64,000 bases of DNA, from IMG/VR virus record IMGVR_UViG_3300012974_000540, positions 1 through 64,000 of that record, one strand, 5' to 3'. A program made the position numbers and the translations under genes. Shown here in pieces: positions 25,339-45,405 of this stretch. Source of the stretch: a virus. Lineage: Duplodnaviria; Caudoviricetes. The notes below the pieces were generated by a model. That model saw only the letters and a program-made list of their open reading frames with translations, was not told the DNA's origin and ran no database searches. Each line of letters opens with the position of its first letter. Position 1 is the stretch's first letter.

Positions 25339-25390
25339 GTCTCCTCATGCCCGCTGATGTGCGGGCGACCGCCATGCGAGGGCGGTTTCG
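25339..25390 (-). ncRNA. hammerhead-like 4 (AUGAGGA core)
   Basis: CGAAAC-stem III-GUC-GCCCGC ACAUCA GCGGGC-AUGAGGA-G. Confidence 0.75.
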
Positions 25391-25393
25391 GGC

Positions 25394-25756
25394 TTAGTGC
25401 TCGTCCGGCAGGTAGAGGGTCCAGTTCGCCAGCCAGAGAGTCACCTCCCGCATCGGGAAGGTGGTGAAGGGGATCTTCTGGCTGGTGACGCGGTTCTCGT
25501 TTCCGTCCGTGCAGATCAGCTCGGCCTTGCTGGTGGCGAGGTCCACCTTCAGCGTCCAGACCTGGAACTCCTCGGCTTTGACCTTGGGGTCGGTCTGGTG
25601 CGAGCCGATGGCGTCGAGAAGCCAGTACGCCTCGGCATTGTCGGCGAGGTACTTCACCCCGGGGGTGAAGACGAAGCGCCGCATCCAGTGATGGTAGCGC
25701 TCCAGGTCGCCGCAAAAGTAGGACAGTCCGGACGTCAGTTCGCCTTCGCTGAGCAT
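25394..25756 (-). CDS. DUF6876-like protein
   Basis: FTPGVKYLADNAEAYWLLDAIGS, FQVWTLKV, DGN and LYLPDEH motifs. Confidence 0.75.
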   Translation of the reverse strand: MLSEGELTSGLSYFCGDLERYHHWMRRFVFTPGVKYLADNAEAYWLLDAIGSHQTDPKVKAEEFQVWTLKVDLATSKAELICTDGNENRVTSQKIPFTTFPMREVTLWLANWTLYLPDEH

Positions 25757-25761
25757 GGTTT

Positions 25762-25816
25762 GTCTCCTCATCAAGCCCGCTGATGTGCGGGCGACCCCCG
25801 AGGAGAGGGGGTTTCG
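25762..25816 (-). ncRNA. hammerhead-like 5 (UUGAUGA core; anti-SD in loop III)
   Basis: GAAA CCCCC-UCUCCUC-GGGGG UC GCCCGC ACAUCA GCGGGC UUGAUGA GGAGA. Confidence 0.8.
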
Positions 25817-26074
25817 CTAGTGGTCCGGCGGGATGACCGGCGCGCGCGGCAGGGTCTCCAGGGTTCCCACGCAGGCGAAGGCGACCAGGCGCACGGTGTA
25901 GCCCTGGCCGGCCACCTTCATGGCGTGCGGCCGCAGGCTCTCGATGCGGTCCCTGTCGGCGCCGATCATGGGCATCTCGCCGAGCGGCGTGCTGAGGGCG
26001 GGGATGCCCTCGCCGCCCCGGCTGTCGGTGGCGATCCAGGCGTAGAGGGCGTCGATTTTAAGCGGCGGGCTCAT
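25817..26074 (-). CDS. hypothetical protein
   Basis: Array gene; ends at the ribozyme boundary. Confidence 0.6.
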   Translation of the reverse strand: MSPPLKIDALYAWIATDSRGGEGIPALSTPLGEMPMIGADRDRIESLRPHAMKVAGQGYTVRLVAFACVGTLETLPRAPVIPPDH

Positions 26075-26307
26075 GCCTCGTCCGCCTCGTCCTCGTCCGC
26101 CTCATCCTCCTCGATCACGACCTGGCCGACGCGGTTGCCGTTGATGTCGCGCACCGCGAAGCGGGTCGGGCCGTTCGGGCGCCCGCTCTCGCGAAAGCGC
26201 TCGGCGGCCTCCTCCAGGATGCGCGCCACCTCCTCGCCGTAGCCACCGCCGCTTTCCTCGTGGAAGGCGGCGTTGCCGGTGTCGATCTCAATGGTGATCT
26301 TGCTCAA
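26071..26307 (-). CDS. hypothetical phage protein
   Basis: I.IDTGNAAF...EVARIL...RDINGNRVG; TTG start after the ribozyme SD. Confidence 0.7.
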   Translation of the reverse strand: MSKITIEIDTGNAAFHEESGGGYGEEVARILEEAAERFRESGRPNGPTRFAVRDINGNRVGQVVIEEDEADEDEADEA

Positions 26308-26313
26308 GTGTTT

Positions 26314-26364
26314 GTCTCCTCATGCCCGCGACGCGCGGGCGACCGCCACGGGAGGGCGGTTTCG
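26314..26364 (-). ncRNA. hammerhead-like 6 (AUGAGGA)
   Basis: Same architecture as the other copies. Confidence 0.75.
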
Positions 26365-26403
26365 GGTGGGATGGGAGGCCTGCGCCCCCCATCCCGTCTG
26401 CGG

Positions 26404-26661
26404 TTACCGGTCCTGGTGCCAGGACTGGCCCTGGCGCTCGTCGAGCCATCGGCTCACTCGGGCTTCCAGTTCGTCGGTCTGCGCGCGGGTGAGCGTGCCG
26501 TGCTTCTCTTGGACGGCATCGTCGTCGAGATAGTAGAGCTCGATCGCCGCATGAGCAGTCCAGCCCTCGCTGTAGGGCACCCGGTTGACCCGGCTGTTAT
26601 CGACCAGTCCTTCCACGACCTCGGCGAAGATGGCGTCGAGATCGGCGGGTTCATCAGGCAT
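26404..26661 (-). CDS. hypothetical protein
   Basis: AGGGAG RBS then MPDEP. Confidence 0.5.
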   Translation of the reverse strand: MPDEPADLDAIFAEVVEGLVDNSRVNRVPYSEGWTAHAAIELYYLDDDAVQEKHGTLTRAQTDELEARVSRWLDERQGQSWHQDR

Positions 26662-26927
26662 GAGCTTCTCCCTTGTCCGGCGGAAGGCCGGCGCCGCCTG
26701 CGCGGCGGGGAATGGGGGTTGCCGCTCGCTGCTGCGAAGTCGCCCAGGAACACGGTATGCCCACTCCGGCTCCGGCGAACCAGAGGGAGATAGCGGGTCG
26801 GATAGGCCCAGGTGCTGTAGTCCAGGCGCGACTGCGCGAAGGCCGCGGCGACGGCTTCCTCCGGGGTGATGCCCAGGAAGACCAGCTCGCCACCACCCGC
26901 CAGGTCGTGGACAGTCACAGGGGTCAT
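26454..26927 (-). CDS. hypothetical protein (3' part overlaps the next ORF)
   Basis: Start directly after the ribozyme SD. Confidence 0.5.
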   Translation of the reverse strand: MTPVTVHDLAGGGELVFLGITPEEAVAAAFAQSRLDYSTWAYPTRYLPLVRRSRSGHTVFLGDFAAASGNPHSPPRRRRRPSAGQGRSSCLMNPPISTPSSPRSWKDWSITAGSTGCPTARAGLLMRRSSSTISTTMPSKRSTARSPARRPTNWKPE

Positions 26928-26930
26928 GGT

Positions 26931-26973
26931 GTCTCCTCATGCCCCGGATGGGGCGACCCCCGAGGGGGTTTCG
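26931..26973 (-). ncRNA. hammerhead-like 7 (AUGAGGA, short stem I)
   Basis: GAAACCCCC..GGGGGUC GCCCC AUCC GGGGC AUGAGGA G. Confidence 0.72.
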
Positions 26974-26992
26974 GTTTTCGCCGGCGAAAGGT

Positions 26993-27349
26993 CTAGAGCG
27001 AGATGATGGCCCCGCGGGAGATGATGAACGTCTCCCATCGGAGCTTCTGCAAGGCCCGGAACCTCTCGTCGCGGCGCGCCTCGAAATGGGCGAAGCTGCG
27101 CTTGTCGTCCGCCTGCCGGATGCTGGTGGTGATCACCGGATGGCTCTCGCCCGCCAGCTCGCCGGTCATCCAGCGGCTGTTGCCGTGGCAGTCCAGGCGG
27201 CGATCCAGCTCATAGCCGAGATCCGCCAGGCGCTGCTTGGCTTCGGCCAGCCGCAGGGGCGTCATGCCCCTGCGGACCATGTACTCGGCCGAGCGGCGGG
27301 CGCGGTCGTCGCGCAGGGACGCCAGGAGGCGTTCGGTCTGGGTCGGCAT
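26993..27349 (-). CDS. hypothetical protein
   Basis: Array gene. Confidence 0.6.
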   Translation of the reverse strand: MPTQTERLLASLRDDRARRSAEYMVRRGMTPLRLAEAKQRLADLGYELDRRLDCHGNSRWMTGELAGESHPVITTSIRQADDKRSFAHFEARRDERFRALQKLRWETFIISRGAIISL

Positions 27350-27356
27350 GGCGGCC

Positions 27357-27644
27357 TCAGAAGTAGGGCGTGAGTTCGCGGCCCCAGGCGCGGACCAGGC
27401 GGCTGATGATGATCTCGCGCACCTCGGTGTCCCAGATCTCGCCGTGAGCGGGCTCGACGGCGTTCATCTTGGCGGTGAGGCGGTCGTAGATCACCTGGTC
27501 GCTGTCCTTCGCCTTGGTCTCCTCCTTCATCTCGGCGATGATCCGCGCCGCGGCGCGGTTGCCATCGTCGCTGAACATCCCGCAGTGATCGGGATGGTTG
27601 AAGCCGATCTCGCGTGCTTCGTCGGCGTCGTCCATATCGGACAT
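27357..27644 (-). CDS. hypothetical protein
   Basis: GMFSDDGN.A..., HGEIWDTEVRE. Confidence 0.65.
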   Translation of the reverse strand: MSDMDDADEAREIGFNHPDHCGMFSDDGNRAAARIIAEMKEETKAKDSDQVIYDRLTAKMNAVEPAHGEIWDTEVREIIISRLVRAWGRELTPYF

Positions 27645-27650
27645 GGTGTC

Positions 27651-27695
27651 CTCCTCATGCCCGCGAAGGTGCGGGCGACCCCCGGAGGGGTTTCG
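27651..27695 (-). ncRNA. hammerhead-like 8 (AUGAGGA)
   Basis: Same architecture. Confidence 0.75.
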
Positions 27696-27696
27696 A

Positions 27697-28071
27697 TCAG
27701 TGCGTGGCCGTGATCGTCAGCAGGCCGGGCGCGAAGGTGACCGTGACCATCCGTTTGTCCGGGAAGGCCAGCTCCACGTCGCGTCCGAGCAGGTCGATCA
27801 CCGGCTTGCCGTCCACCCTCCCGGTGACCTTCCGCATCCGGATGGTGCTGCCGGGCGGGCCCGCGAAGGGTTCCCGCTCGTGCAGCTCCTCCGGCGTGGG
27901 GATGGCGCAGACGATCCGGCCGGGCCGGTCCTCCTGCGGTGGGTGGACGATGCAGCGGTAGATCGTCCCGCCCCCGAACCCGGCGGCCAGCAGGCGCCGG
28001 CCGTCGAGCCAGATGCGGGGGCGGTTCTTGTTCCGGCCGATGCTGAAGTCGGCCTGGACGGTGGCGAGCAT
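27697..28071 (-). CDS. hypothetical protein
   Basis: IGRNKNRPRIWLDG..L..AGF; KPVIDL. Confidence 0.65.
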   Translation of the reverse strand: MLATVQADFSIGRNKNRPRIWLDGRRLLAAGFGGGTIYRCIVHPPQEDRPGRIVCAIPTPEELHEREPFAGPPGSTIRMRKVTGRVDGKPVIDLLGRDVELAFPDKRMVTVTFAPGLLTITATH

Positions 28072-28364
28072 CAGCCGCCGTCCAGCGCCTTGGCGGTCGC
28101 CAGGAGCAGCTCATGCGCCTCGCGGCACTGGTCCGCCGCGAAGCGTGGGTCCGTGACGCCCTGCTGGGCGTGCAGGCGGGCCAGCCGCAGGGTCTCCGCG
28201 ACCTGGGCCAGGAAGGCGTCCAGGTCGTTCAGGAGTTGCAGCACGTCTTCCAGGTCGTCGGGACTGGCGATGCCGGCCTCGATCAACTGGATATGCGCGG
28301 CCATGTTCTGCACGCGATCCAGCAGGGAATCCCCTGCCGGAGCGGCGGTTTGCTGTTGCTCCAT
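28071..28364 (-). CDS. hypothetical protein
   Basis: Start after the ribozyme SD; TGATG overlap. Confidence 0.6.
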   Translation of the reverse strand: MEQQQTAAPAGDSLLDRVQNMAAHIQLIEAGIASPDDLEDVLQLLNDLDAFLAQVAETLRLARLHAQQGVTDPRFAADQCREAHELLLATAKALDGG

Positions 28365-28372
28365 GTAGAGCG

Positions 28373-28419
28373 GTCTCCTCATGCCCGCGGGATGCGGGCG
28401 ACCGCTCAGGGCGGTTTCG
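28373..28419 (-). ncRNA. hammerhead-like 9 (AUGAGGA)
   Basis: Same architecture. Confidence 0.75.
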
Positions 28420-28432
28420 ATGGTCCTGGGAG

Positions 28433-28726: not shown

Positions 28727-28817
28727 CAGGTTATCTCCGTCCGCCGCACTATGCGGCACCCCTTGTAGGGAAGTGTGACAGTCAGTCTGGACGGCGATCA
28801 GGGGGGTGATATGGGGG

Positions 28818-28865
28818 GTCTCGTCAGGCCCGCGCAACTGCGGGCGACCGCTCAGGGCGGTTTCG
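28818..28865 (-). ncRNA. type II hammerhead 10 (canonical CUGACGA)
   Basis: GAAACCGC..GCGGUC GCCCGC AGUUGC GCGGGC CUGACGA G. Confidence 0.82.
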
Positions 28866-28883
28866 CGTTTTCGCCGGCGAAAA

Positions 28884-29294: not shown

Positions 29295-29299
29295 TCAGG

Positions 29300-29346
29300 G
29301 TCTCCTCATGCCGGTGAAAGTGCCGGCGACCGCCCGAGCGGTTTCG
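29300..29346 (-). ncRNA. hammerhead-like 11 (AUGAGGA)
   Basis: Same architecture; stem I GCCGGC/ACCGGC. Confidence 0.72.
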
Positions 29347-29351
29347 GTGGG

Positions 29352-29615: not shown

Positions 29616-29619
29616 GTTT

Positions 29620-29665
29620 GTCTCCTCATGCCGGCGGAGGTGCCGGCGACCCCAGAGGGGTTTCG
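29620..29665 (-). ncRNA. hammerhead-like 12 (AUGAGGA)
   Basis: Same architecture. Confidence 0.75.
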
Positions 29666-29666
29666 C

Positions 29667-30038
29667 TCATCGCTCGCCGAAGCGGCACCCCACCTCGGCG
29701 CTCAGGGCCTCGGCGTGCAGCCCGGCATAGTCGAGCTGCAGGGGGGTGTAGTTGCTGAAATAATCGCGGTCGGTGTCGCCCGGCCGCAACGTCAGGAAGG
29801 CCATCACCGCCGCCACCGTCGCGTCGCTGTCGATCGCGTGGATCGGCGGGCAGCTAAAGTCCTCGCCCATGAACAGCGGGGCGTCCAGGCCGCTCTGCGT
29901 GAGCCGGTAGCCGATGACCCATCGGCCGTTCTGGGACCGGCCCGTGTCAAAGAGCGTCAGCGTGAAGGACGGCCCCATGCCCCGCCTGTAGGGGTGGAAC
30001 CGAACAAAGCGGATCGGTGTGCCCGAGGGCGTGTCCAT
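29667..30038 (-). CDS. hypothetical phage protein
   Basis: F.GEDF..P.HAIDSD...FLTLRPGDTD.DYF..YTP.QL. Confidence 0.7.
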   Translation of the reverse strand: MDTPSGTPIRFVRFHPYRRGMGPSFTLTLFDTGRSQNGRWVIGYRLTQSGLDAPLFMGEDFSCPPIHAIDSDATVAAVMAFLTLRPGDTDRDYFSNYTPLQLDYAGLHAEALSAEVGCRFGER

Positions 30039-30042
30039 GTTT

Positions 30043-30085
30043 GTCTCCTCATGCCCAAAGACGGGCGACCCCCGGAGGGGTTTCG
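30043..30085 (-). ncRNA. hammerhead-like 13 (AUGAGGA)
   Basis: Same architecture. Confidence 0.72.
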
Positions 30086-30091
30086 GTAGGG

Positions 30092-30604: not shown

Positions 30605-30609
30605 GGGGT

Positions 30610-30661
30610 GTCTCTCATCAAGCCCGCGATGGTGCGGGCGACCTGACAGCGTCAGGTTTCG
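30610..30661 (-). ncRNA. hammerhead-like 14 (UUGAUGA; upstream stop codon in stem III)
   Basis: UC GAAA CCUGAC-GCU-GUCAGG UC GCCCGC ACCAUC GCGGGC UUGAUGA GA. Confidence 0.8.
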
Positions 30662-30942
30662 ATGCGTACGTTCCTTTCCGGGGTGATGCGGCTCTGCGCA
30701 TCCCGCCAGGGGCGGTCGTCCTTCCAGACGCGGCGGTTGTAGTGCCACTGCGCCAGGGTGAGGCGGGCATAGCCCTCCAGCAGCGGCTGGGTGCGGATGC
30801 CGCCATCGGCCGCGGTGAAATGCTCCGTGGCGACCTCCTCGCCCGCTTTCGTGCAGCGGATCTGGATCCAGCCGTCCTGGTAGTCACCGTGGACGGTGCG
30901 GCCCTCGTCGTCCGCCGCCTGGGCGGTGAAGGACGTGCTCAT
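30652..30942 (-). CDS. hypothetical protein
   Basis: ATGA overlap; stop lies inside the ribozyme. Confidence 0.6.
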   Translation of the reverse strand: MSTSFTAQAADDEGRTVHGDYQDGWIQIRCTKAGEEVATEHFTAADGGIRTQPLLEGYARLTLAQWHYNRRVWKDDRPWRDAQSRITPERNVRIET

Positions 30943-31295: not shown

Positions 31296-31298
31296 GTG

Positions 31299-31348
31299 GT
31301 CTCCTCATGCCCGCGATGGTGCGGGCGACCTGACGGTGTCAGGTTTCG
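31299..31348 (-). ncRNA. hammerhead-like 15 (AUGAGGA; upstream stop codon in stem III)
   Basis: GAAA CCUGAC-ACC-GUCAGG UC GCCCGC ACCAUC GCGGGC AUGAGGA G. Confidence 0.75.
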
Positions 31349-31569
31349 GTCTGTCGCCGCCTCAGCTCATCTCGAAAGATGCTGAGGTGCAGGTGGCAGA
31401 GCTGTCGGTTTATCCGCCGGCCCAGGTGAACACCGAGCACCGGCGCGATGTCCGGCAGGGCCAGGGTCTCCTGCGTGCTCCGGATATGCCAGCGCAGGCG
31501 CGCTTTCGGCCAGAGCCGCGCGGATGCGCGCAGCTCCTCCGCGTGTCGGCAGGCCGCCGCATCGCTCAC
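31339..31569 (-). CDS. hypothetical protein
   Basis: GTGA overlap. Confidence 0.55.
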   Translation of the reverse strand: MSDAAACRHAEELRASARLWPKARLRWHIRSTQETLALPDIAPVLGVHLGRRINRQLCHLHLSIFRDELRRRQTET

Positions 31570-31952: not shown

Positions 31953-31960
31953 GGGTCTTA

Positions 31961-32010
31961 CTCCTCATGCCCGCGAATGTGCGGGCGACCCCCGAGGAGA
32001 GGGGGTTTCG
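31961..32010 (-). ncRNA. hammerhead-like 16 (AUGAGGA; anti-SD in loop III)
   Basis: GAAA CCCCC-UCUCCUC-GGGGG UC GCCCGC ACAUUC GCGGGC AUGAGGA G. Confidence 0.75.
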
Positions 32011-32382
32011 TCAGCCCTTGGCGGGCTGGGTCATCAGGGCGATGGCCTCCTCGGCCAGCCTGATGACGGTCTCGTTCCAGGCGCGCTGCTCCTCCAGCGT
32101 GTAGGGATACCAGCTCGCGGGGCGCAGCCACACGCCATCCACCAGACGCAGGTACATGGCGTCGTCGGGAGCGACGTCGTCCGGCATCAGCGGGGCGTCG
32201 TCGTCCGCCTTGTCCTGCTCCGGCGGGTCGTCCTGGTTGTCGTAGTAACCCGGCGGCGGCGTCTCGGGGCTGAGCAGTTCCGGCCCGCCTGGCACGCTGC
32301 CGTCCAGGTCGTCGATCCAGCGGCCCGTGGCGCGGCTGCCCCGGATGATCTCCTGCAGCCTGGCGACGATCGCTTCGTCCAT
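32011..32382 (-). CDS. hypothetical protein
   Basis: Exactly bounded by ribozymes 17 and 16. Confidence 0.6.
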   Translation of the reverse strand: MDEAIVARLQEIIRGSRATGRWIDDLDGSVPGGPELLSPETPPPGYYDNQDDPPEQDKADDDAPLMPDDVAPDDAMYLRLVDGVWLRPASWYPYTLEEQRAWNETVIRLAEEAIALMTQPAKG

Positions 32383-32386
32383 GTTT

Positions 32387-32436
32387 GTCTCCTCATGCCC
32401 GCAGGTGCGCGGGCGACCGCCACGGGGGCGGTTTCG
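32387..32436 (-). ncRNA. hammerhead-like 17 (AUGAGGA)
   Basis: Same architecture. Confidence 0.75.
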
Positions 32437-32440
32437 ATGC

Positions 32441-33684: not shown

Positions 33685-33780
33685 GATGTTTCCTCGCCCG
33701 AAGACGCAGTCGGGCCTCTGCTGCCGCACAGCGGCACAAGAAGGGTGCCCCGGCGTCGTGGCCGGGCACAACCCTTTCGG

Positions 33781-33827
33781 TTCTCGTCAAGCCGGCGTGA
33801 TTGCCGGCGACCCCCGTGGGGGTTTCG
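33781..33827 (-). ncRNA. hammerhead-like 18 (UUGACGA)
   Basis: GAAACCCCC..GGGGGUC GCCGGC AAUCAC GCCGGC UUGACGA G. Confidence 0.78.
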
Positions 33828-33828
33828 C

Positions 33829-34308
33829 TCAAGCGTGCTGCTCGTCCAGATCGTCCGTCCCGATCACATCGGAGACGAAGACATCCTTCAGCTCCGGTTC
33901 GGGCCAATAGGAGCCGTGGTTGGAGGCCATGTCGTCCATGGCCTGGCCGATCTCGCCGTTGAGATTGGCCTCGACGATGGCGATCGCTTCCTCGGCGCTG
34001 CTGGCCTCGACTTCGACGGCGCCATCACCGGTGCTTTCCGGATAAAGGAACTCCATGCAGATCTGATAGAATTGCGAGCCGGAGCCGCCGTTCAGCTCCC
34101 GCAGGGCATCCTCGTAATCGAGCAGGACCAGGGGATGCTGGCGCGGCAGGGCCAGCGCGGGCTCGCTGTCGTGGGTCAGATAGGCGTGGCGGCCGGTCAG
34201 GGCAGCCGCGGCCGCCTTGCGGACGGCGCGGGGGCCGTAATCGGCCGCGATCTCCTCGAAGCTGCGCAGGCGGCGGGTGCCGGGGCGCAGAACAAAGATG
34301 TCGGACAT
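33829..34308 (-). CDS. hypothetical protein, paralog of 34692-35177
   Basis: RKAAAAALTGRH; VEASSAEEA. Confidence 0.65.
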   Translation of the reverse strand: MSDIFVLRPGTRRLRSFEEIAADYGPRAVRKAAAAALTGRHAYLTHDSEPALALPRQHPLVLLDYEDALRELNGGSGSQFYQICMEFLYPESTGDGAVEVEASSAEEAIAIVEANLNGEIGQAMDDMASNHGSYWPEPELKDVFVSDVIGTDDLDEQHA

Positions 34309-34314
34309 CGCGCG

Positions 34315-34361
34315 TTCTCGTCATGCTGGCGGGATTGCCAGCGACCGCCGGGGCGGTTTCG
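34315..34361 (-). ncRNA. hammerhead-like 19 (AUGACGA)
   Basis: Stem I covaried to GCUGGC/GCCAGC. Confidence 0.75.
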
Positions 34362-34362
34362 G

Positions 34363-34632
34363 TCAGCGCGTTTTTTTGCAGAGCCGTGGGGCCTGCCGGG
34401 GCGGGATGCCGTCCACCACCTCGACCTCCGCCTCCGTGCTGATCCACAACCGCGCGCCGCAGGAGAGCGGCTTGTCGGGTGAATAGACGATGCGGCAGGG
34501 GCCATGGATGACCAGCTCGCTGGCGTAGCGGCGGTGGCGTCCCTCTCGGATGATGACCGGCGGCTCCCGCTGCTCCGGCGCGACATGCATGTTGCGCCGG
34601 ATGCGGTGCTGATAGACGTGAATGAGCTTCAC
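34363..34632 (-). CDS. hypothetical phage protein
   Basis: IHV.QH.IR.N...EPP..., GP..IVYSPDKPLSCGARLWI.T. Confidence 0.72.
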   Translation of the reverse strand: MKLIHVYQHRIRRNMHVAPEQREPPVIIREGRHRRYASELVIHGPCRIVYSPDKPLSCGARLWISTEAEVEVVDGIPPRQAPRLCKKTR

Positions 34633-34639
34633 GGAGGGG

Positions 34640-34687
34640 CCTCTTCAAGCCGGCGGATGTGCCGGCGACCGCCCTGCGGCGGTTTCG
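34640..34687 (-). ncRNA. hammerhead-like 20 (UUGAAGA)
   Basis: Same architecture. Confidence 0.78.
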
Positions 34688-34691
34688 CTGT

Positions 34692-35182: not shown

Positions 35183-35239
35183 GCATGCTCTTCATGCCGG
35201 CGGGATTGCCGGCGACCCCTCTACGGGGTTTCGCGATGC
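35183..35239 (-). ncRNA. hammerhead-like 21 (AUGAAGA; upstream stop codon in loop III)
   Basis: GCAUCGC GAAA CCCC-GUAGA-GGGG UC GCCGGC AAUCCC GCCGGC AUGAAGA GCAUGC. Confidence 0.77.
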
Positions 35240-35617: not shown

Positions 35618-35664
35618 GTCTCCTCGTCATGCCAGTGAAGCTGGCGACCCCTCGCGGGGTTTCG
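35618..35664 (-). ncRNA. hammerhead-like 22 (AUGACGA)
   Basis: Stem I covaried to GCCAG/CUGGC. Confidence 0.75.
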
Positions 35665-35683
35665 GTTTCGCGGGCCTTTGGGG

Positions 35684-36148
35684 TCACGCGGTGGCGGGTG
35701 TCGTCGCCAGCAGCATGGCCTTCAGGTCGTCCCAGCGGGAGCAGGTGTAGCCGGGCAGGCGATGCTGGATGTCCTCCTCGGCCGACGCTATCGCGTTGCG
35801 CAGGCAGCGGAGGCGTTGTTCGGACGGCTCCCGGAGGTAGCTGGCCCAGTCGTCGTGCAGGCACTGCATCAGGAGCAGGATGGTGCTATCGGCGCCGAGG
35901 AAGCGCGGCGCCAGGTAGCCGCGGACCTGCAGCCCGCCCTTGCCCTCCATGTAGGGCTGGTAGAGGCTCGGGGAGATCAGCGCGCCCAGGGCGCACATGA
36001 GTCCGTCCGGCCCGCGATAGAGGCAGTCGCCGCTTTCGTTGACGCTCGGGCGCCCCTGATCGAGCAGGTGCGCCACGATGGCGTCGATGGCGGCGGTGGT
36101 GGCCTCGCGCTGGGTCTGGCCACCGGGGTCGATGTTGGTTTCGGACAT
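35684..36148 (-). CDS. hypothetical phage protein
   Basis: HLL.QG..S....C.YRGPDG.MCA.G.LI; LQ..HD-like motif. Confidence 0.72.
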   Translation of the reverse strand: MSETNIDPGGQTQREATTAAIDAIVAHLLDQGRPSVNESGDCLYRGPDGLMCALGALISPSLYQPYMEGKGGLQVRGYLAPRFLGADSTILLLMQCLHDDWASYLREPSEQRLRCLRNAIASAEEDIQHRLPGYTCSRWDDLKAMLLATTPATA

Positions 36149-36159
36149 GGATATGTCGT

Positions 36160-36228
36160 CCTTTTCATCCGGCGAAGGTGCCGGAACCAAAAGAGGCCGC
36201 CCAACGGTGATTGGGCGGCCTCTTGGTC
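36160..36228 (-). ncRNA. degenerate hammerhead 23 whose stem III is a terminator-like hairpin
   Basis: Stem I CCGGC-ACCUUC-GCCGG and AUGAAAA retained; GAAA missing; 14-bp hairpin plus U-run at 36189-36224. Confidence 0.5.
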
Positions 36229-36667
36229 ATGCGTAGCTGGGGTTCAGTGACGGCAGATCGACCCGCGCCCGCAGCGTCCGGAAACGCATCCCGTCGCCGG
36301 GGGCGGCGATCACCAGCGGCTCGGTGAGCCACTGGATCTGGTCTTCGGTGACGCGGTTCAGCGCGTCACGCGGCCGGAGTTGGTAGCCGTCCAGCGACAG
36401 CGCGATCAGGTAGCGCGTGCCGTCGGGCCGGTATTGTTCCCCATCGACGCTGACCACCAGGACGCTGCAATCGCTGTCCTGGTAGAGGCCCAGCGCCTCA
36501 ACCTGGAGGTCGTGGCGCGGGAAGTGGTCGGGAACGGTGCCATACGTGTGGGTGAGCTGCAGACCGAAGATGTCGGATGCGACCGGCGGAAAGTTTTGAA
36601 ACAGCCGGTCGCGAACGGCATCGGGGATCGGCGCCGTCACGCGCATGACAGGGTGCCTCTTGCTCAT
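36227..36667 (-). CDS. possible degenerate 2H-phosphoesterase-like protein
   Basis: LF..FPP, LVVSVDG...RPDG.RY and SLD..RP.D scaffold; the expected HxT positions read LQLT and YLIA. Confidence 0.4.
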   Translation of the reverse strand: MSKRHPVMRVTAPIPDAVRDRLFQNFPPVASDIFGLQLTHTYGTVPDHFPRHDLQVEALGLYQDSDCSVLVVSVDGEQYRPDGTRYLIALSLDGYQLRPRDALNRVTEDQIQWLTEPLVIAAPGDGMRFRTLRARVDLPSLNPSYA

Positions 36668-36675
36668 GTGTGTAT

Positions 36676-36721
36676 GCTCTTCAGGCCGGCTGGAGTGCCG
36701 GCTACCCCATGCGGGGTTTCG
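36676..36721 (-). ncRNA. type II hammerhead 24 (canonical CUGAAGA, GUA site)
   Basis: C GAAA CCCC-GCAU-GGGG UA GCCGGC ACUCCA GCCGGC CUGAAGA G. Confidence 0.82.
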
Positions 36722-36754
36722 TGTCGCGCCATGGATGGCGAGCATGCGACGTGG

Positions 36755-36860: not shown

Positions 36861-36935
36861 TCCTCGCTACAGGTTCGCGGAGGAATTGAGGACTTCTCCC
36901 CTTTGCCCAGCCGCCGCAGCGCTCCCGCAGGCGAT

Positions 36936-37310
36936 GTGCCCGCCACATCCGCGCCAAAGCCGTCGCGCCGCGGCCCGCCCCCCGGCATGCCCGAGGCGAT
37001 GCTGGCGGTCTGGAACCGCTATGCGAGCGCGCAGGGGCTGGTGGCGGCCCGCGCCCTGACGCCCAAGCGCCGCACCGCGCTGCTGGCCCGCCTGCGCGAC
37101 ACCTTCGGCGGCGACCTGGCTGGCTGGGAGGGCTATTGCGAGCGGCTGGCGCGGAGCGGCTTCTGCTGCGGCGAGAACGACCGGGGCTGGCGGGCCGACC
37201 TCGACTTCGCCATCCGCCCGGACAGCGCCGTGCGCGCCCTGGAGGGCCGCTACGACAACCGCCAGACGCGCCAGCCAGTGCCGAAGCTGATGCAGCGCTG
37301 GGCCGTCTGA
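36936..37310 (+). CDS. phage replication protein (replisome-organiser C-terminal-like)
   Basis: F.CGENDRGWRADLDF.......LEGRY motif; start uncertain. Confidence 0.65.
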   Translation: MPATSAPKPSRRGPPPGMPEAMLAVWNRYASAQGLVAARALTPKRRTALLARLRDTFGGDLAGWEGYCERLARSGFCCGENDRGWRADLDFAIRPDSAVRALEGRYDNRQTRQPVPKLMQRWAV

Positions 37311-39067
37311 TGCCGCTTCCTGGCGATGTCCTGGACGAGCTGCGCGCGGTGGGCATCCACATGACGCGGCGCGATGTCGGACGGAACTTCAAACTGCTCT
37401 GCCCGCGCTGCAACGGCGGCAATGACCGCGAGAAGGCCCTCTCGGTGCTGCTCGACGCCGATGGCGGCGCGGTCTGGGAGTGCAAGCGCGGCAGCTGCGG
37501 CTGGAAGGGCAATGTCCCCGGCCGCTCGGCCGCGCAGGGCAAGGCCTCCTTCACGCCGCGCCCGAAGGCCTACGTCCGGCCGCCGGCGCCCGTGGCGCCC
37601 ATCAAGACCGATCCGCTCTACGAGTTCTTCGGCGCGCGCGGCATCAGCCGCGAGACCGTCGATGCCTTCGGCTGCTTCCTGACGAAGCGCGCCTTCCCCC
37701 AGCTCGACTGGAAGGAGGCCGGCGCCATCGCCTTCCCGTATATCTGGAAGGGCGAGTACGTGAATGCGAAGTTCCGCTCGCGCGAGAAGCACTTCATCCA
37801 GGAGAAGGGCGCCGAGCCGACCCTGTTCAACATCGACCGGATCGACCTCGACCGGGTGGTGTTCTGCGAGGGCGAGAGCGACGTGATGGCGGTCTTCGAG
37901 GCGGGCGAGCCCTCGGCCGTCTCCCTCGCCAACGGCGCGCCCGCGAAGCTGAAGGAGGAGGTCGATCCGAACGACCTCCGCTACCTGCCGCTCCACACCC
38001 ATGCCGAGCAGCTCGCCCAGGTGAAGTCGTTCGTGCTGGCCGGCGACATGGACGGGCCGGGCCGGAATCACTGCGAGGAGATCGCGCGCCGCCTCGGCAA
38101 GGAGAAGTGCCGCCTGGTGAAGTGGCCGGAGGACTGCAAGGACGCGAACGAGACCTTGCAGAAGCACGGCCGCCAGGCGGTGCTGGCCTGCCTGGACCAT
38201 GCCGCGCCCTATCCGATCAGCGGCCTCTGGAACCTCGGCGTGGACGACATCGCCGTCCTCGACAGCCCGACCTGGTCGCACACCGTCTCGACCGGCTCCA
38301 GGGTGCTCGACGCGCTGTTCCGCATCCCCGTCCAGGGGCGGCTGTTTGTCATCACCGGCGTGCCGAACGCCGGCAAGAGCACCTTCCTGAACTGGCTGGT
38401 GACGCAGCAGGCCCGGCTGCACGGCCGCAAGCTCGCCATCTTCTCGCCGGAGAGCGAGCCGTGGCAGCTCCATGGCAGCCAGCTCGCCGAGGTCTATAGC
38501 GGCAAGCCCTGGCGCGTGATGTCGCCGGACGAGAAGATCGACGCGGTCACCTTCGTCGGGCACCACTTCACGCACATCGCCCAGCCGCGCGAGGACCAGC
38601 TCCCCTCCATGGAGTGGTTGCTCGACCAGGTGCGCTTCTGCGTGCTGCGCGACGGCATCAACGGCGTCGTCATCGACCCCTGGAACGAGATCGAGCACGC
38701 CCGGCCGAACGGGCAGAGCATGACCGAATACGCGAACCTCGCCCTGCCCCGCCTGAAGCGGTTCTGCGCGGTCTATGGGATCAACGTCTTTCTGGTCGCG
38801 CATCCCCGCAAGTTGCAGAGCGACGAGATCCCGACCGGCTACGCCATCGCCGACACGGCCGCCTTCGCCAACAAGGCGGATTTCGGGATCTCGGTGTATC
38901 GCCCCGACCCGAATATTCCCGCGCGCATCGGCATCCTCACCTGGAAGATCCGGTTCAAGTCCCATGGCAGCAAGGGGGCGTGCTGGATGATGTGGGACCG
39001 CGCGAGCGACCGTTTTCACGACTGCGACGAGCAGCCCGACAACTGGCCGCAGCCGGTGCCGGCATGA
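37310..39067 (+). CDS. T7 gp4/Twinkle-like primase-helicase
   Basis: CPRC..C...C zinc finger; TOPRIM CEGESD, D.DGPG, KDANE; Walker A GVPNAGKS; IDPWNE; VAHPRK. Confidence 0.92.
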   Translation: MPLPGDVLDELRAVGIHMTRRDVGRNFKLLCPRCNGGNDREKALSVLLDADGGAVWECKRGSCGWKGNVPGRSAAQGKASFTPRPKAYVRPPAPVAPIKTDPLYEFFGARGISRETVDAFGCFLTKRAFPQLDWKEAGAIAFPYIWKGEYVNAKFRSREKHFIQEKGAEPTLFNIDRIDLDRVVFCEGESDVMAVFEAGEPSAVSLANGAPAKLKEEVDPNDLRYLPLHTHAEQLAQVKSFVLAGDMDGPGRNHCEEIARRLGKEKCRLVKWPEDCKDANETLQKHGRQAVLACLDHAAPYPISGLWNLGVDDIAVLDSPTWSHTVSTGSRVLDALFRIPVQGRLFVITGVPNAGKSTFLNWLVTQQARLHGRKLAIFSPESEPWQLHGSQLAEVYSGKPWRVMSPDEKIDAVTFVGHHFTHIAQPREDQLPSMEWLLDQVRFCVLRDGINGVVIDPWNEIEHARPNGQSMTEYANLALPRLKRFCAVYGINVFLVAHPRKLQSDEIPTGYAIADTAAFANKADFGISVYRPDPNIPARIGILTWKIRFKSHGSKGACWMMWDRASDRFHDCDEQPDNWPQPVPA

Positions 39068-39476: not shown

Positions 39477-39486
39477 GGACCCCCTT

Positions 39487-40310: not shown

Positions 40311-40311
40311 G

Positions 40312-41415: not shown

Positions 41416-41445
41416 GACGATGTGACCTATCACATCGTCATGTGA
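41410..41445. promoter_or_regulatory. two operators in the cro/cI switch
   Basis: CTGCATGACGATGTGA (41410-41425) and TCACATCGTCATGTGA (41430-41445). Confidence 0.75.
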
Positions 41446-41472
41446 CGCGGAACAAGACCAGGGGGTCGTTGA

Positions 41473-42351
41473 GTGATGGTAGTGAAGGCGTCGCAGCCTG
41501 CCAGGAAGAATCCTTCCGTGGGGGCGCGCGCGGAGGCGAAGCCTGTGGTCGTGCAGGTGAGCGCGGCCGAGGCGCGGCTGAGTGATTACCTCTCCGACGA
41601 AGAGGTGGAGCGCGACCGGCAGGGGATGCGCGACACGATGAAGCGCCTCGACCTGGTGCCGAACACCTGGGCGCGGGCAGCCGGGTTCCGCAACGCCAAT
41701 GCCCTCTACAACTGGTTGTCGGGCCGCACCCGGAGCCTGAGCCTGGATGTGCGGGAGCGGCTGGCGGCGGTGCTGCCCGGCGAGACGGCCTGGAGCATCA
41801 TCGGGCGGAAGCCGCCGCGGGCGCGGAAGAACGCGGTCGATGCGGTGATGCGGCAGGTGCCGATCCGCACGGCGGCGCGGGCCAGCCTCTGGCGGCGCGT
41901 CTATGAGCTGCCGAAGCGGGAGCGGGGCAGCATCCTCGCCGTCGCGATGCCCGACAACGACATGGATATCGCCGTCCGCATCGACGACGACAGCATCAAC
42001 GAGCTTTATTCCGCCGGCTCCTATGCCCTGGTGCATAGCCTCCGGCCCCAGGATCGGCTGCGGAACGGCGATGTCGTGCTGGTGGAGCGGCGCCGTGTGC
42101 GCGCCGAGGCCGAGACGGTCGAGATCACGCTGCGCCAGGTCGTGGTGACGAAGCAAGGGGCCGTGCTGCGCTGGCGCAGCCTGAATCCGGACTTCCAGGG
42201 GGACGTGCCCATGCCCTGGCCTTACGAGGGGGGGAAGCCCTTCACCAACCTGCAGGAGCCGAAATTCGCGATCCACAAGCGGTCGGTCTATCGGATCACC
42301 GGCGTGGTGGTCACCGTGCAGACCATGGCGCGGCGCATCTTGAACGGCTGA
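41473..42351 (+). CDS. CI-like repressor (HTH plus S24/LexA-like C-terminal domain)
   Basis: WARAAGF.NANALYNWLSGRTRSLS; RIDDDSINELY..GS, GDVVLV, E.TLR and SLNPDFQ motifs. Confidence 0.75.
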   Translation: MMVVKASQPARKNPSVGARAEAKPVVVQVSAAEARLSDYLSDEEVERDRQGMRDTMKRLDLVPNTWARAAGFRNANALYNWLSGRTRSLSLDVRERLAAVLPGETAWSIIGRKPPRARKNAVDAVMRQVPIRTAARASLWRRVYELPKRERGSILAVAMPDNDMDIAVRIDDDSINELYSAGSYALVHSLRPQDRLRNGDVVLVERRRVRAEAETVEITLRQVVVTKQGAVLRWRSLNPDFQGDVPMPWPYEGGKPFTNLQEPKFAIHKRSVYRITGVVVTVQTMARRILNG

Positions 42352-42389
42352 CAAACCCTCTGGATTGACCCGCCTGGGCGGTGTTTTTA

Positions 42390-42430
42390 TTGACTTTCCA
42401 CCTTCACATCACATAGCTGTGTGATGTGAA
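42390..42430 (+). promoter_or_regulatory. promoter (-35 TTGACT) with a 26-bp palindromic operator variant
   Basis: TTCACATCAC-ATAGCTGT-GTGATGTGAA. Confidence 0.6.
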
Positions 42431-42446
42431 GAATGGGTGGTGCCGC

Positions 42447-43082
42447 ATGGCTCGGAAGCGTCGCTACGTGAAGTCGAGGACGATGACGCTGGTGCGGGAC
42501 AAGCAGAGCGGCATCCTTGTCGCCCACGCCGGCAGCGACTACGGCGCCCAGCACGAGGTGCGCCGTGCCCGTGGGGAAATCGAGATCCGCGACCGTGAGG
42601 TGACGAATTCCGGCGTGCTCGTCGCGCGCGGCGCCTATGTCGTGGCGCCGGGTGCGGTCGAGCGCCTCGCCCGCGACGGCCTGCTCTGCGATCCGCGCGA
42701 CACAGCGGCGAACCGGGCCGCCGAGACGCGGCGGCGCCTGATGGCGGCCGAGACGTTCCGCGTCAGCGCCGAGATCGCCCAGGTGCGCCCGCGCATGGTG
42801 GCCCGCTACGACTCATGCATGTTCAGCGGCGCCATGGCGGTGATTCCCGACGTCATGGCGCATGCCCGCTCCCGCCTGAACCGCTATGTGCCGGTCATGG
42901 GCTGGTGCCGCTTCCTGACGCTGCTGAACGCGGTGGTCTTCGAGTGCGCGACCACGCCGCGCGAGGACCGCATCATCGCCGAGGCGCTGCGGCTCCTGGC
43001 CGACCACCTGGACGCAAAAAACCCCCGAGGTGATACCTCGGGGGCGGGGCACTCAGCCGAGCAGCGGATGCAGGCAGCCTAG
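42447..43082 (+). CDS. putative phage transcriptional regulator (DUF6456-like)
   Basis: VERLARDGLL...AAETFR...ALRLLADHL. Confidence 0.45.
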   Translation: MARKRRYVKSRTMTLVRDKQSGILVAHAGSDYGAQHEVRRARGEIEIRDREVTNSGVLVARGAYVVAPGAVERLARDGLLCDPRDTAANRAAETRRRLMAAETFRVSAEIAQVRPRMVARYDSCMFSGAMAVIPDVMAHARSRLNRYVPVMGWCRFLTLLNAVVFECATTPREDRIIAEALRLLADHLDAKNPRGDTSGAGHSAEQRMQAA

Positions 43083-43439
43083 CTGCGACAGCGACTGGAG
43101 GTCGCGCAGGACGGTCTGTCCGAGCGCGACGGCGAAGGGGGTCACGTCGGCCTCGATGATGTCCAGCAGGCACTGGAGCTTCATCACCAGCTCGCGGCCG
43201 TTCTGCGCGGCGGCCGCGGCCATCTCCCAGTCGAGCACGGTGAGGTCGGCCATGATCTGCTTGGCCTCGGGGCTCTCGGGGTCGAGGTCGCCCCAGGCGA
43301 GGCGCATCTCATTGCCGCGGCGGAGCAGGTCGGGGATGGAATCCGGCACGACGGGCAGGCGGCTCAGGGGGGCGACATCCGGGAAGGTGACGCTGGAGGG
43401 CAGGGAGGTCGTAGGCACCGCGGGCAGAGTGGGGGTCAT
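43053..43439 (-). CDS. hypothetical protein
   Basis: GGAGAGG RBS; helical. Confidence 0.55.
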   Translation of the reverse strand: MTPTLPAVPTTSLPSSVTFPDVAPLSRLPVVPDSIPDLLRRGNEMRLAWGDLDPESPEAKQIMADLTVLDWEMAAAAAQNGRELVMKLQCLLDIIEADVTPFAVALGQTVLRDLQSLSQLGCLHPLLG

Positions 43440-43587
43440 GGACCTCTCCAGGGGGACGGAGTTTCGGAACAATCCGCGAACTCACGTTGCGGCGCCGTGG
43501 TGAAATTGCCTCGAAGGGGTTGATCACGCAAGCGTGAAATTCAACCGACCCGAAATGTGCCTTGGAAAAGAGCCAGCCCGAGTCTGT

Positions 43588-43635
43588 AAACACAGAAACG
43601 CCCACCAGCCTCGGGGAGAGGCTGATGGGCGTTTC
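43588..43635 (-). terminator. long hairpin, probable terminator of the second array block
   Basis: GAAACGCCCAUCAGCC..GGCUGGUGGGCGUUUC-UGUGUUU; the G-U pair favours the minus strand. Confidence 0.55.
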
Positions 43636-44081
43636 GTCGTTCAGTCGTCGGGGAGGGTTTAGGCTTAGAAGGCATGAAGCCTCCTGTGTTCGGGCAGGGG
43701 TGCGGGGCCCTGGCCTACTCGGGGCCTGCTCCTGGCGCTCGTGGGGTCCGCGAGCACCGGGAATCTCTATTGATGTCTTCCCTCCGGAAGTCGGGCCGTT
43801 GTCCAGGCGGCGGTCGTCTAGTCCAGCTCGTCGGGTGCCAGGCGACGTGACGGGATCTGGCAGTGCGGCGTGTGTGGGCCGATGCCGGGCATCCCAGCGT
43901 CGGCACACCTCCCAAGGACTCCAGATGGGACGCCCTGGACGGGGCGGCCACCTTCGCTCGACCCTGCGGGGATTGCTTGATCGGGGTTAGGGGAACTGGT
44001 TGGCGGCGGTGTGCCGGTGACAGATATATGGCGACGCCAGCGCTGTTTTTCAACGCGGGCGTTTCGTTTCTTCTCAGGCCA

Positions 44082-44552
44082 TTACAGGGAAATCGGCGAA
44101 TAGAAGCCGAGCCGGGCGGCGTGCGCATCGAAGGGCCGGCAGCCGGTCTTGATCCATTGGATGATGTGCTGGAGGTCGGTGCCCATCGGGAAGCCCAGGA
44201 AGGCTTCCTCGGTGAGGCCGTCGCCGCCCAGCTCGATCTCCTGCAGCGCATCCCAGACGCGGATCGCTTCCGGGAGGCCGAAGGGGCCGTGGCACCACTC
44301 GTCGGGCACCAGCTGGTGCTCGCGCCAGAAGGCGCCGGTCTCATCCTGCACGACCTGCTGCCCGTCGATCCGCAGGGGCGTCGGGGTGTTCCCGGCGCTG
44401 TAGGGGTGGCCATCCGTGTGCGTGTCGATCTGCGGGATGCGCCCATGATCCGTCACCAAGAAGGTGGCTTTGCTCACGGGCGCGCATTGGTGGGCCACGA
44501 GGACCAGGCCCGAGATCAGATCGCCGGTCGGCGAGCGCAGAAGGGTGTTCAT
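44082..44552 (-). CDS. hypothetical protein
   Basis: Start after ribozyme 25; EE.FL.FP.GT....I..W. Confidence 0.65.
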   Translation of the reverse strand: MNTLLRSPTGDLISGLVLVAHQCAPVSKATFLVTDHGRIPQIDTHTDGHPYSAGNTPTPLRIDGQQVVQDETGAFWREHQLVPDEWCHGPFGLPEAIRVWDALQEIELGGDGLTEEAFLGFPMGTDLQHIIQWIKTGCRPFDAHAARLGFYSPISL

Positions 44553-44558
44553 GGGTCT

Positions 44559-44610
44559 GCTTTCTTCAAGCCGGCGGGAATGCCGGCAATCCCGGAACGG
44601 GATTTCTAGC
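44559..44610 (-). ncRNA. hammerhead 25 (UUGAAGA, AUU site, covaried stem III)
   Basis: GAAA UCCCG-UUC-CGGGA UU GCCGGC AUUCCC GCCGGC UUGAAGA. Confidence 0.75.
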
Positions 44611-44980
44611 TCTGCACCAGCGCGGTGACGGCGATCACGCGCTGGCGCTGGTCCTTCACGGGGGCGAATTGCGGCCCCGATCCGGGAAATACCACGTCCG
44701 GCCGGCTCATGCCCCGCTGGCGGAGCAGCAGGGCGGTGATCTGGGAGACGATGTGGAAGGTCCCGGCGCGCGGTGGCGGCAGGCCGACCACGTCGCCGTA
44801 GATCGGTGGCGGCTCGATCCGCACGCCGTCCGCCTCGGCCGGCTGGCCGCAGGGGTGGACGACGACGCGCGCCACGGTGCCGCTCGGGGGCACCATGCGC
44901 ATGCCGGTGGGGGTGGCGAGCATGACCGGATGTGGGGTGAGATTCACGAACCGCTCGCAGGCGGTCGCTGGTGTCGGCAA
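44606..44980 (-). CDS. conserved phage hypothetical protein (NLTPH family)
   Basis: VNLTPH, PPSG.VARV, GLP.P and IVS motifs. Confidence 0.72.
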   Translation of the reverse strand: MPTPATACERFVNLTPHPVMLATPTGMRMVPPSGTVARVVVHPCGQPAEADGVRIEPPPIYGDVVGLPPPRAGTFHIVSQITALLLRQRGMSRPDVVFPGSGPQFAPVKDQRQRVIAVTALVQS

Positions 44981-44987
44981 AGGTCGG

Positions 44988-45037
44988 TTCCTCTTCATGC
45001 CGGCGGGATGGCCGGCGACCGCCAGGTGGCGGTTTCG
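44988..45037 (-). ncRNA. hammerhead-like 26 (AUGAAGA)
   Basis: Same architecture. Confidence 0.75.
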
Positions 45038-45042
45038 TTTTA

Positions 45043-45354
45043 CTACCACTCGAAGGTGGGCAGTCCTTCCACATCCTCGCCGTCGCCATGCAGGTTGATC
45101 CACCAGCAATCGTGCTGGCGGGCCAGCCGCATGATCCCGAGGAAGGCGTCCGACATGCCGCGCTGGCGCAGCTCGGCGTCGGTTTCGCGGGCGCTGTCGC
45201 TCGGGCAGTTGATGAACCACCCGATCTCGTGGTGGATCACCCGCACCGGGAAGTCATGGCTCTCCCGGTCGAGGGCCTGGAGGCGGTCGTTGTCGGCCTT
45301 CGGGATGTGGCCGGTGGAGATGTTCAGGAAGTGACGAATGGCGTCGTCGGCCAT
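45043..45354 (-). CDS. DUF5983-like protein
   Basis: L.ISTGHI...D, GWFI and A....C.WI...DG.....LPTFEW motifs. Confidence 0.7.
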   Translation of the reverse strand: MADDAIRHFLNISTGHIPKADNDRLQALDRESHDFPVRVIHHEIGWFINCPSDSARETDAELRQRGMSDAFLGIMRLARQHDCWWINLHGDGEDVEGLPTFEW

Positions 45355-45359
45355 GGTTT

Positions 45360-45405
45360 GTCTCCTCATGCCCGCGGGGTGCGGGCGACCGCGAGCGCGG
45401 TTTCG
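45360..45405 (-). ncRNA. hammerhead-like 27 (AUGAGGA)
   Basis: Same architecture. Confidence 0.75.

Follow-up and report, generated by a model that had tools for sequence, protein, structure and literature searches.

The window analysed here, the first 64 kb of the 93,342-bp IMG/VR virus record IMGVR_UViG_3300012974_000540 (about 69% G+C), carries a minus-strand array of 27 elements shaped like type II hammerhead ribozymes, most of which have A rather than C at core position 3 (A3) and almost no stem II. A portal (54407-56119), a terminase domain (49804-50937) and the remaining gene content, which includes a Toprim primase-like protein (37136-39067), an S24 repressor-like protein (41473-42351), ThyX, ERF and a YqaJ-like exonuclease, identify the source as a tailed phage, probably a temperate one. 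The closest cultured portals belong to Brevundimonas phages (43-44% identity), and the first array gene (36227-36667) had no match in a Pfam search.

Structure of the array

A covariance model (R1), built from nine copies and run unfiltered across the complete 93-kb record, recovered 27 type II hammerhead-shaped elements at 28.9-72.6 bits, all on the minus strand at 22429-45793; the best score after these was 15.5 bits. Their E-values range from 5e-7 to 1e-20, so the 27 copies cannot have arisen by chance. The limits given for the array in the preliminary description were too narrow, leaving the elements at 45739-45793, 24758-24813, 23446-23498 and 22429-22483 outside. One element occupies each junction between small minus-strand genes, oriented throughout in the direction of those genes, and its parts follow the order stop codon, C11.1-GAAA, stem III hairpin, U16.1-H17, stem I hairpin, N3-U-G-A-N7-G-A, G10.1, A-rich spacer and start codon. 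The upstream stop lies 0-8 nucleotides (nt) before C11.1 and the start codon 5-15 nt after G10.1. All 27 copies show the part order of Rfam family RF02276, in which the 3′ strand of stem II and GAAA precede a closed stem III, U16.1-H17, a closed stem I, the 7-nt core strand and the 5′ strand of stem II; stem II is open. Stems I and III form genuine RNA helices: pairing holds in 99.1% of cells, both sides have changed in 6 of 13 pairs, none of 500 shuffles reached the observed covariation, and slid controls paired at 33-45%.

To avoid circular counting, a second parse was anchored on the two hairpins and not on the core motif. Position 3 is A in 16 copies (AUGAGGA in 12, AUGACGA in two and AUGAAGA in two), U in seven and C in four, and the combinations at positions 3 and 8 are A.G (16), U.G (six), C-G (four) and U-A (one); the C3-G8 pair, or its U3-A8 covariant, expected of a type II hammerhead is not the norm here. 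GAAA, G5, A6, A9 and U16.1 are each present in 27/27 copies and U4 and G8 each in 26/27, while H17 is C in 24, A in two and U in one, and never G. G8 is replaced by A in a single copy, the U3-A8 covariant at 23446-23498 (UUGAAAA), and the C3 status of 45739-45793 holds only in a CCGAUGA register, in which U4 becomes C. The distance from stem I to G10.1 is 7 nt in every copy of the window. Among the A3 copies there are 16 distinct stem I hairpins and 15 distinct stem III hairpins, with flank conservation of 30-59%, yet all 16 retain C11.1, GAAA, U16.1, an H17 other than G, U4, G5, A6, G8, A9 and G10.1.

Contiguous stem II pairs number zero in one copy, one in 16, two in eight, five in one (by hand count) and seven in one; a re-count of 45739-45793 in the CCGAUGA register gives it 6 base pairs (bp) and leaves 24/27 copies with 0-2 bp. 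The G10.1-C11.1 pair is retained in 26/27. A real stem II helix exists only in 24758-24813 (7 bp), 23446-23498 (5 bp) and 45739-45793 (6 bp), the three copies for which a full three-way junction is the predicted fold; a typical A3 copy is predicted to form two hairpins with free core strands. The stem II helix or loop I pseudoknot expected of a type II hammerhead is lacking as a rule. The preliminary description had counted 27 type II copies with the same distribution of A, U and C at position 3, which R1 and the hairpin-anchored parse matched exactly, and its statements that G5, A6, A9, GAAA and UH are invariant and that stem II is usually reduced also held.

Overlap with the Shine-Dalgarno sequence

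In 12/12 AUGAGGA-G copies the word GAGGAG (G5 to G10.1) ends 5-10 nt upstream of an ATG or TTG. The open reading frames (ORFs) that follow encode 78-157 amino acids (aa) and extend to the next element, the exception being that after element 24 (25336-25393; elements are numbered 1 to 27 from the high-coordinate end). A Shine-Dalgarno (SD) sequence is defined as a GGAG-type purine run that is complementary to the 16S rRNA 3′ end and lies about 5-10 nt ahead of a genuine ORF's start codon, and GGAG-type sites also precede other genes of the phage. This spacing supports the earlier proposal that, in the AUGAGGA-G copies, the core doubles as the ribosome-binding site (RBS) of the downstream gene; pairing of the ribosome to G5-G10.1 would exclude the ribozyme core.

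Neighbouring elements with identical hairpins (31296-31351 versus 30609-30664; 28815-28868 versus 28370-28422) are distinguished by the 3′ core strand, mainly by positions 3 and 7, and depending on these bases the SD reads GAGGAG or a weaker word of the GAGAGA or GACGAG type. Since the differences fall on N7, which sets SD strength, any gene-by-gene tuning may act on the strength of translation at least as much as on the rate of cleavage.

The start codon after element 24 opens an 11-aa ORF (25294-25329, minus strand) that ends in UGAUG over the start of the next gene and looks like a leader peptide with translational coupling. In the same element, the AUG at positions 3-5 is in frame with a long ORF and was considered as a start codon; this reading was dropped because the 11-aa ORF and the UGAUG-coupled start at 25294, with its own GGAGAG, explain that gene.

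Origin of the A3 core

Three copies read N-N-G-AUGAGGAG (CUG at 22429-22483, UUG at 25762-25819 and CCG at 45739-45793); in each, GGAG comes right after a core in the canonical register, and a shift of 3 nt onward gives the word AUGAGGA-G as well. Elements 23 (25762-25819) and 24 are identical in stem I and loop I and differ by exactly UUG. G7 is restricted to A3 copies (12/16 versus 0/11, Fisher P = 1.8e-4), and none of the 39 A.G copies in the four-genome clade described below has a stem II longer than 3 bp. Comparison of these paralogues suggests that AUGAGGAG is CUGAUGA+GGAG shortened by 3 nt.

The ancestral form would have been CUGAUGA followed by GGAG, the latter serving as SD and stem II strand alike, and would survive in the three N-N-G-AUGAGGAG copies. 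Loss of 3 nt would yield AUGA-GGAG, in which the old A6-U7-G8-A9-GGAG becomes the new A3-U4-G5-A6-G7-G8-A9-G10.1, and the shortened form would coincidentally again be a hammerhead core, shifted by 3 nt and wrong at position 3 only. A3 would then be a by-product of the fusion of the SD into the core, and the shortening would consume the stem II strand, leaving A3 copies with the G10.1-C11.1 pair only. A single 3-nt contraction would, as the simplest account, bring about A3, G7 and the loss of stem II together.

Distribution of A3 elements

An IMG/VR scan with position 3 left free returned at least 118 stretches, and R1, run on the first 80 loci, confirmed at least 110 hammerheads in them. Outside one contig, all 89 type II hammerheads among the matches listed have C3 or, rarely, U3, and A3 was found in 0/89; most of these have a 3-4-bp stem II or the form with GC plus an AGCC pseudoknot. 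A3-specific scans of the whole IMG/VR collection gave a handful of records, namely three large phages with fragments and one unrelated phage (G006). The three large phages, G001 (96.6 kb), G004 (100.9 kb, with terminal repeats) and G005 (95.5 kb), form a clade with the present phage, to whose portal theirs are 48-50% identical. These relatives carry about 21, 30 and 14 elements, respectively, in the corresponding region of their genomes. The intervening genes lack homology across the four phages and no array gene is conserved, so that orthologous sites could not be compared with G001. Since portal and element position are shared while the array genes differ, the array architecture and the A3 form are, judged by sequence comparison, features of one family-level clade of 93-101-kb phages.

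Within this clade A.G is the commonest 3-8 combination in the present phage (16/27), G004 (14/25) and G005 (6/12), and a minority in G001 (3/20). G001 mostly carries the canonical CUGAGGAG; the SD can therefore lie in the core without any need of A3. Clade-wide, among 84 parsed copies, position 3 is A in 40, C in 27, U in 13 and G in four, position 8 is G in 64, A in 18 and U in two, GAAA is present in 83/84, and most copies have UGA at positions 4-6. U3-A8 covariants occur at 23446-23498 in the window and twice in G001, and the C3.A8 combination is present in relatives. Even though the stems covary and the genes differ, loop I has a recurrent sequence in all four clade genomes (the window, L129, L135/L136 and L137), AUCCC in 14 of 86 parsed copies together with AAUCCC, AUUCC and ACCUYC, and no RNA pairing partner for it was found in these four genomes.

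Beyond the clade, the unrelated phage G006 has a single A3 copy (L134, 5420-5471, plus strand; AUGACGA) with a normal 4-bp stem II (GGCC/GGCC). A GTDB scan with the A3 pattern gave 20 matches, about the number estimated by chance, of which only one looks real: a single copy with AUGAGGAG before an ATG in the alphaproteobacterial genome of Hoeflea olei (L147, 3562-3619, minus strand; 30.2 bits). A wider IMG/VR A3 scan without G10.1 returned 18 stretches, and beyond the clade records R1 confirmed only fragment L164, which is taken to belong to the clade. A metagenome scan for the GCCCGC-stem subfamily with any base at position 3 gave one match, a chance hit inside a coding region. No match was obtained with the YqaJ-like exonuclease protein as a query for close relatives, and Brevundimonas phage Polewnik, which has the nearest cultured portal (43.7% identity), has no element.

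Interpretation of the array

The 27 elements are best read as type II hammerhead ribozymes or their direct descendants, the A3 copies being either weakened ribozymes or translation signals. The reading we favour, with a confidence that stops just short of even, is that they act as attenuated self-cleaving punctuation of early polycistronic RNA, the core having taken up the SD. The elements would punctuate the long early and accessory transcripts of this ~93-kb tailed phage and would still cut themselves after H17, presumably slowly. Each cut would leave an upstream mRNA ending in the stem III hairpin and a downstream mRNA starting with a 5′-OH and the stem I hairpin, followed by a free SD.

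Clustered hammerheads flanking single prophage genes cleave both in vitro and in E. coli (PMC3088659). The core retained in the A3 copies counts for catalysis because an SD with a hairpin would need neither GAAA, U4 nor H17; it also persists in relatives with 48-50% portal identity and dissimilar array genes, and variation is concentrated on the 3-8 pair, not spread as decay would be. Two type III-shaped junctions, which occupy the same pre-gene position as the type II elements, point the same way. The first (46098-46166, minus strand) has the core CUGACAA (C3.A8) and a three-way junction as its minimum-free-energy fold; the second (46566-46630, minus strand) has the core CUGUUGA, in which A6 is replaced by U, and a weak 3-bp stem III, and its fold is partly recovered. 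In both, GAAA and the 3′ strand of stem III form the purine-rich stretch before the ATG (GAGAGA in the first).

A number of findings weigh against self-cleavage. Only 2/27 copies (42.7 and 41.4 bits) reach the RF02276 gathering score of 37 bits; seven more scored 20.4-33.8 bits in the same search, and a more permissive search adds further ones that score as low as about 15 bits. A complete mutational scan showed low activity for every single mutant of the C3-G8 pair (PMC9901934), a per-mutant value for C3A being absent from the supplements of PMC3088659 and PMC9901934, and the one ribozyme characterised with a 1-bp stem II relies on a pseudoknot (PMC3088659). Complementarity of loop I to the 3′ tail, the 5′ flank and the SD, and of loop III to the SD, is at or barely above the shuffled level, so the A3 copies carry two defects, A3 itself and the lack of stem II or a compensating pseudoknot. 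In the relatives, the 10.1-11.1 pair is present in only 11/25 copies of G004 and 6/12 of G005, U4 is replaced in several copies of these two genomes (CAGAGGA in three) with GAGGA kept, and a few copies have lost the 3′ core and kept GAAA, a pattern better accounted for by homogenisation than by selection. The 14 identical stem III hairpins of G004 indicate homogenisation, which is able to mimic selection. Finally, a half element in the window (36140-36226, minus strand; fold -45.5 kcal/mol, z -5.95) is made up of a strong terminator hairpin and its U run, directly followed by a hairpin resembling stem I (CCGGC ACCUUC GCCGG), AUGAAAAGGA and a start codon, the terminator taking the place of GAAA and stem III; its layout shows that a stem I hairpin with a purine-rich strand apparently serves as a leader alone.

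The main rival reading, in our view rather unlikely, is that A3 copies with a 1-bp stem II are dead ribozymes. The selected module would then comprise a 3′ hairpin for the upstream gene, a 5′ hairpin, an exposed strong SD and the A-rich spacer; it would insulate each small gene and set its translation in an uncut polycistronic RNA, the other hammerhead letters persisting by homogenisation, as the 14 identical hairpins of G004 illustrate. The low single-mutant activity of position 3 (PMC9901934) combined with the missing stem II or pseudoknot (PMC3088659) would fit this account, as would a half element that precedes its gene without GAAA or stem III, and neighbours with identical hairpins that differ at N7, altering SD strength (GAGGAG versus GAGAGA). 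The preliminary description had held that its proposal would fall if the A3 copies were inert under all conditions and the other core positions drifted freely in related genomes. Such drift is seen in part: U4 and positions 8, 10.1 and 11.1 drift in G004 and G005 while GAGGA stays. GAAA, however, survives in 83/84 copies from genomes whose portals are about 50% identical, and the A3 copies of the window keep the other core bases. In those copies both hairpins vary, whereas GAAA and U4 are invariant and H17 is never G, and the spacing from stem I to G10.1 is fixed at 7 nt in this phage, where an SD would tolerate others; all of this argues against death of the ribozyme and for attenuated cleavage.

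More doubtful is processing that depends on a factor, in which a partner (a protein of phage or host, an RNA chaperone or the initiating 30S subunit) would complete or recognise the weakened fold, which would be cut only then. The A3.G8 hammerheads, and the C3.A8 ones of the relatives, would be active in the cell through such a partner, and cutting might be coupled to, or gated by, initiation of translation on the SD. Conservation of core bases where stem II, the tertiary contact and the C3-G8 pair are missing would be understandable on these terms, as would a loop I sequence (AUCCC and close variants) conserved in four genomes with no RNA partner found; Penelope-like minimal hammerheads have low in vitro activity, and their authors suggested in vivo factors (PMC4209133). 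The four phages nevertheless share no candidate, the Ro60-like gene described below being absent from three relatives and no array gene being conserved. If true, this would define a helper-dependent hammerhead subclass with a dispensable C3-G8 pair. A role mainly at the DNA level, as conserved boundaries for exchange of gene cassettes between phages by recombination, is very improbable: elements are conserved where the intervening genes of related phages are completely different, and neighbouring copies share identical stretches, but compensatory changes preserve RNA helices and not DNA identity, a role in RNA is indicated by the strict gene orientation and by the constant placement relative to stop and start codons, and recombination may be a side effect of repeats.

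Individual elements

Among the 12 AUGAGGA-G copies, element 2 (45357-45408) has a 1-bp stem II and a start codon 7 nt past GAGGAG, and in element 11 (32384-32439) the ATG lies 6 nt past GAGGAG. Loop III of element 12 (31956-32013) is UCUCCUC, complementary to GAGGAGA; a general loop III-SD contact was considered and rejected, as this complementarity occurs in two copies only, the other being 25762-25819. Both hairpins of element 13 (31296-31351) are identical to those of element 14 (30609-30664; UUGAUGA-G). Elements 15 (30040-30088), 16 (29617-29668; loop I ACCUCC), 17 (29297-29349), 19 (28370-28422), 20 (27646-27698; the top R1 score, 72.6 bits) and 21 (26928-26976) follow, and element 22 (26311-26367) is one of the two above the RF02276 gathering score, at 42.7 bits, because Infernal treats CUG as deleted. 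Element 24, which has the stem I and loop I of element 23 without UUG, has a predicted fold of two hairpins with the core strands unpaired. The remaining A3 copies are elements 3 (44986-45040) and 7 (35183-35236), both AUGAAGA-G, and elements 6 (35618-35667) and 9 (34312-34364), both AUGACGA-G; in element 6 the core is followed by GAG, and the SD GAGGAG occupies positions 8 to 10.4.

Besides element 14, the U3 copies comprise element 4 (44558-44610; UUGAAGA-A), in which positions 10.1 and 11.1 are A and A, unpaired, and H17 is U; element 8 (34636-34690; UUGAAGA-G); element 10 (33778-33830; UUGACGA-G); and element 23, in which UUGAUGA-G overlaps AUGAGGA-G, giving two registers in UUGAUGAGGAG, and which scores 41.4 bits with RF02276, above the gathering score. 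Element 25 (24758-24813; UUGAUGA-G) has a 7-bp stem II and a complete three-way junction as its minimum-free-energy fold, and element 26 (23446-23498; UUGAAAA-G) combines the U3-A8 covariation with a 5-bp stem II (GGAUC/GAUCC). The C3 copies are element 1 (45739-45793; R1 28.9 bits), which reads either as CCGAUGA-G with a 6-bp stem II (GGAGAA/UUCUCC) or as CCG plus AUGAGGA-G and has A at H17; element 5 (36672-36724; CUGAAGA-G), also with A at H17; element 18 (28815-28868; CUGACGA-G), which about 100 nt of untranslated RNA separate from the next start codon; and element 27 (22429-22483), in which CUGAUGA-G overlaps AUGAGGA-G and with which the array ends, ahead of a 45-aa ORF and, at about 22240-22270, a hairpin resembling a terminator. 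All of these lie on the minus strand.

Other features of the window

A Ro60-like gene with TROVE and Ro60 vWA domains (52281-54068, plus strand; E 2e-36, PHROG 850) lies between terminase and portal and is absent from the three related phages G001, G004 and G005. Just upstream of it is a weak hammerhead-like match (51697-51760, plus strand; 19.7 bits) that could be a Y-RNA-like partner. A Hint/intein-like domain in 48160-49011 (plus strand) has the unassigned ORF 47276-48163 on one side and the Terminase_6C gene (49804-50937) on the other, an arrangement that suggests an intein within the terminase; in G001 the portal match, too, is broken by about 1 kb, inside a single 953-aa frame. At 8155-8464 (minus strand), four identical GC-rich 16-nt hairpin-like matches (94% G+C), arranged as two pairs 42 nt apart, sit inside a 1236-aa ORF (7636-11346) and probably represent a repeat within a structural protein gene.

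Comparison with known systems

Clustered type II hammerheads at small prophage genes, stems II of 1-2 bp and U3-A8 covariation have all been published (PMC3088659; PMC4209133; PMC6155905), whereas no report of A3 as a recurrent natural variant, or of the layout with the SD in the core, was found in the literature searched; what is new here is a clade in which A3 dominates and stem II is lost. The present elements resemble the clustered phage and prophage hammerheads (PMC3088659; RF02276) in part order and open stem II, and in occurring as many copies per operon, one per junction, at small unrelated genes, with a stem II that is often 1-2 bp. Those hammerheads, however, fit the consensus 'almost without exception', and here C3 is found in 4/27 copies and A3 in 16/27. 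The ribozyme with a 1-bp stem II in Figure 4 of Perreault et al. 2011 has the same single G10.1-C11.1 pair, but its loop I pairs with bases 3′ of stem II, whereas the present elements have an A/C-rich tail and a C/U/A-rich loop I that are no more complementary to each other than shuffled sequences are. Natural U3-A8 covariants of the core pair have been reported (PMC3088659; PMC4209133) and share variation at the 3-8 pair with the copy at 23446-23498 and the two in G001; the A3.G8 combination that dominates here, like the C3.A8 of the relatives, is neither Watson-Crick nor wobble. Penelope-like minimal hammerheads (PMC4209133) are similar in being abundant, with a stripped-down fold, low in vitro activity and a suspected helper in vivo, and differ in being eukaryotic and type I, with a short stem III, thought to act as dimers, and in having no link to a translation signal.

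The elements depart from known hammerheads in the C3-G8 pair, in stem II or a tertiary contact and, for 25/27, in the RF02276 score, and agree with them in the other sequence features compared. The hammerhead active site is held to include C3-G8 as an unvarying pair, and yet A3 with almost no stem II is the main form in a clade of large phages, at 12 to 27 junctions per genome and with the RBS in the same letters. Should these copies cut, the sequence requirements accepted for hammerheads are too narrow, and a class escapes searches that discard core variants; should they fail to cut, they would be a natural stepwise conversion of a ribozyme into a translation or mRNA-boundary signal, with intermediates in the same genome. 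Either answer bears on what clustered phage hammerheads are for. RiboJ-type synthetic insulators, in which self-cleavage leaves each gene a defined 5′ end and a hairpin immediately ahead of the RBS, correspond to the arrangement proposed here, but they are engineered, with the RBS outside the ribozyme and a canonical core.

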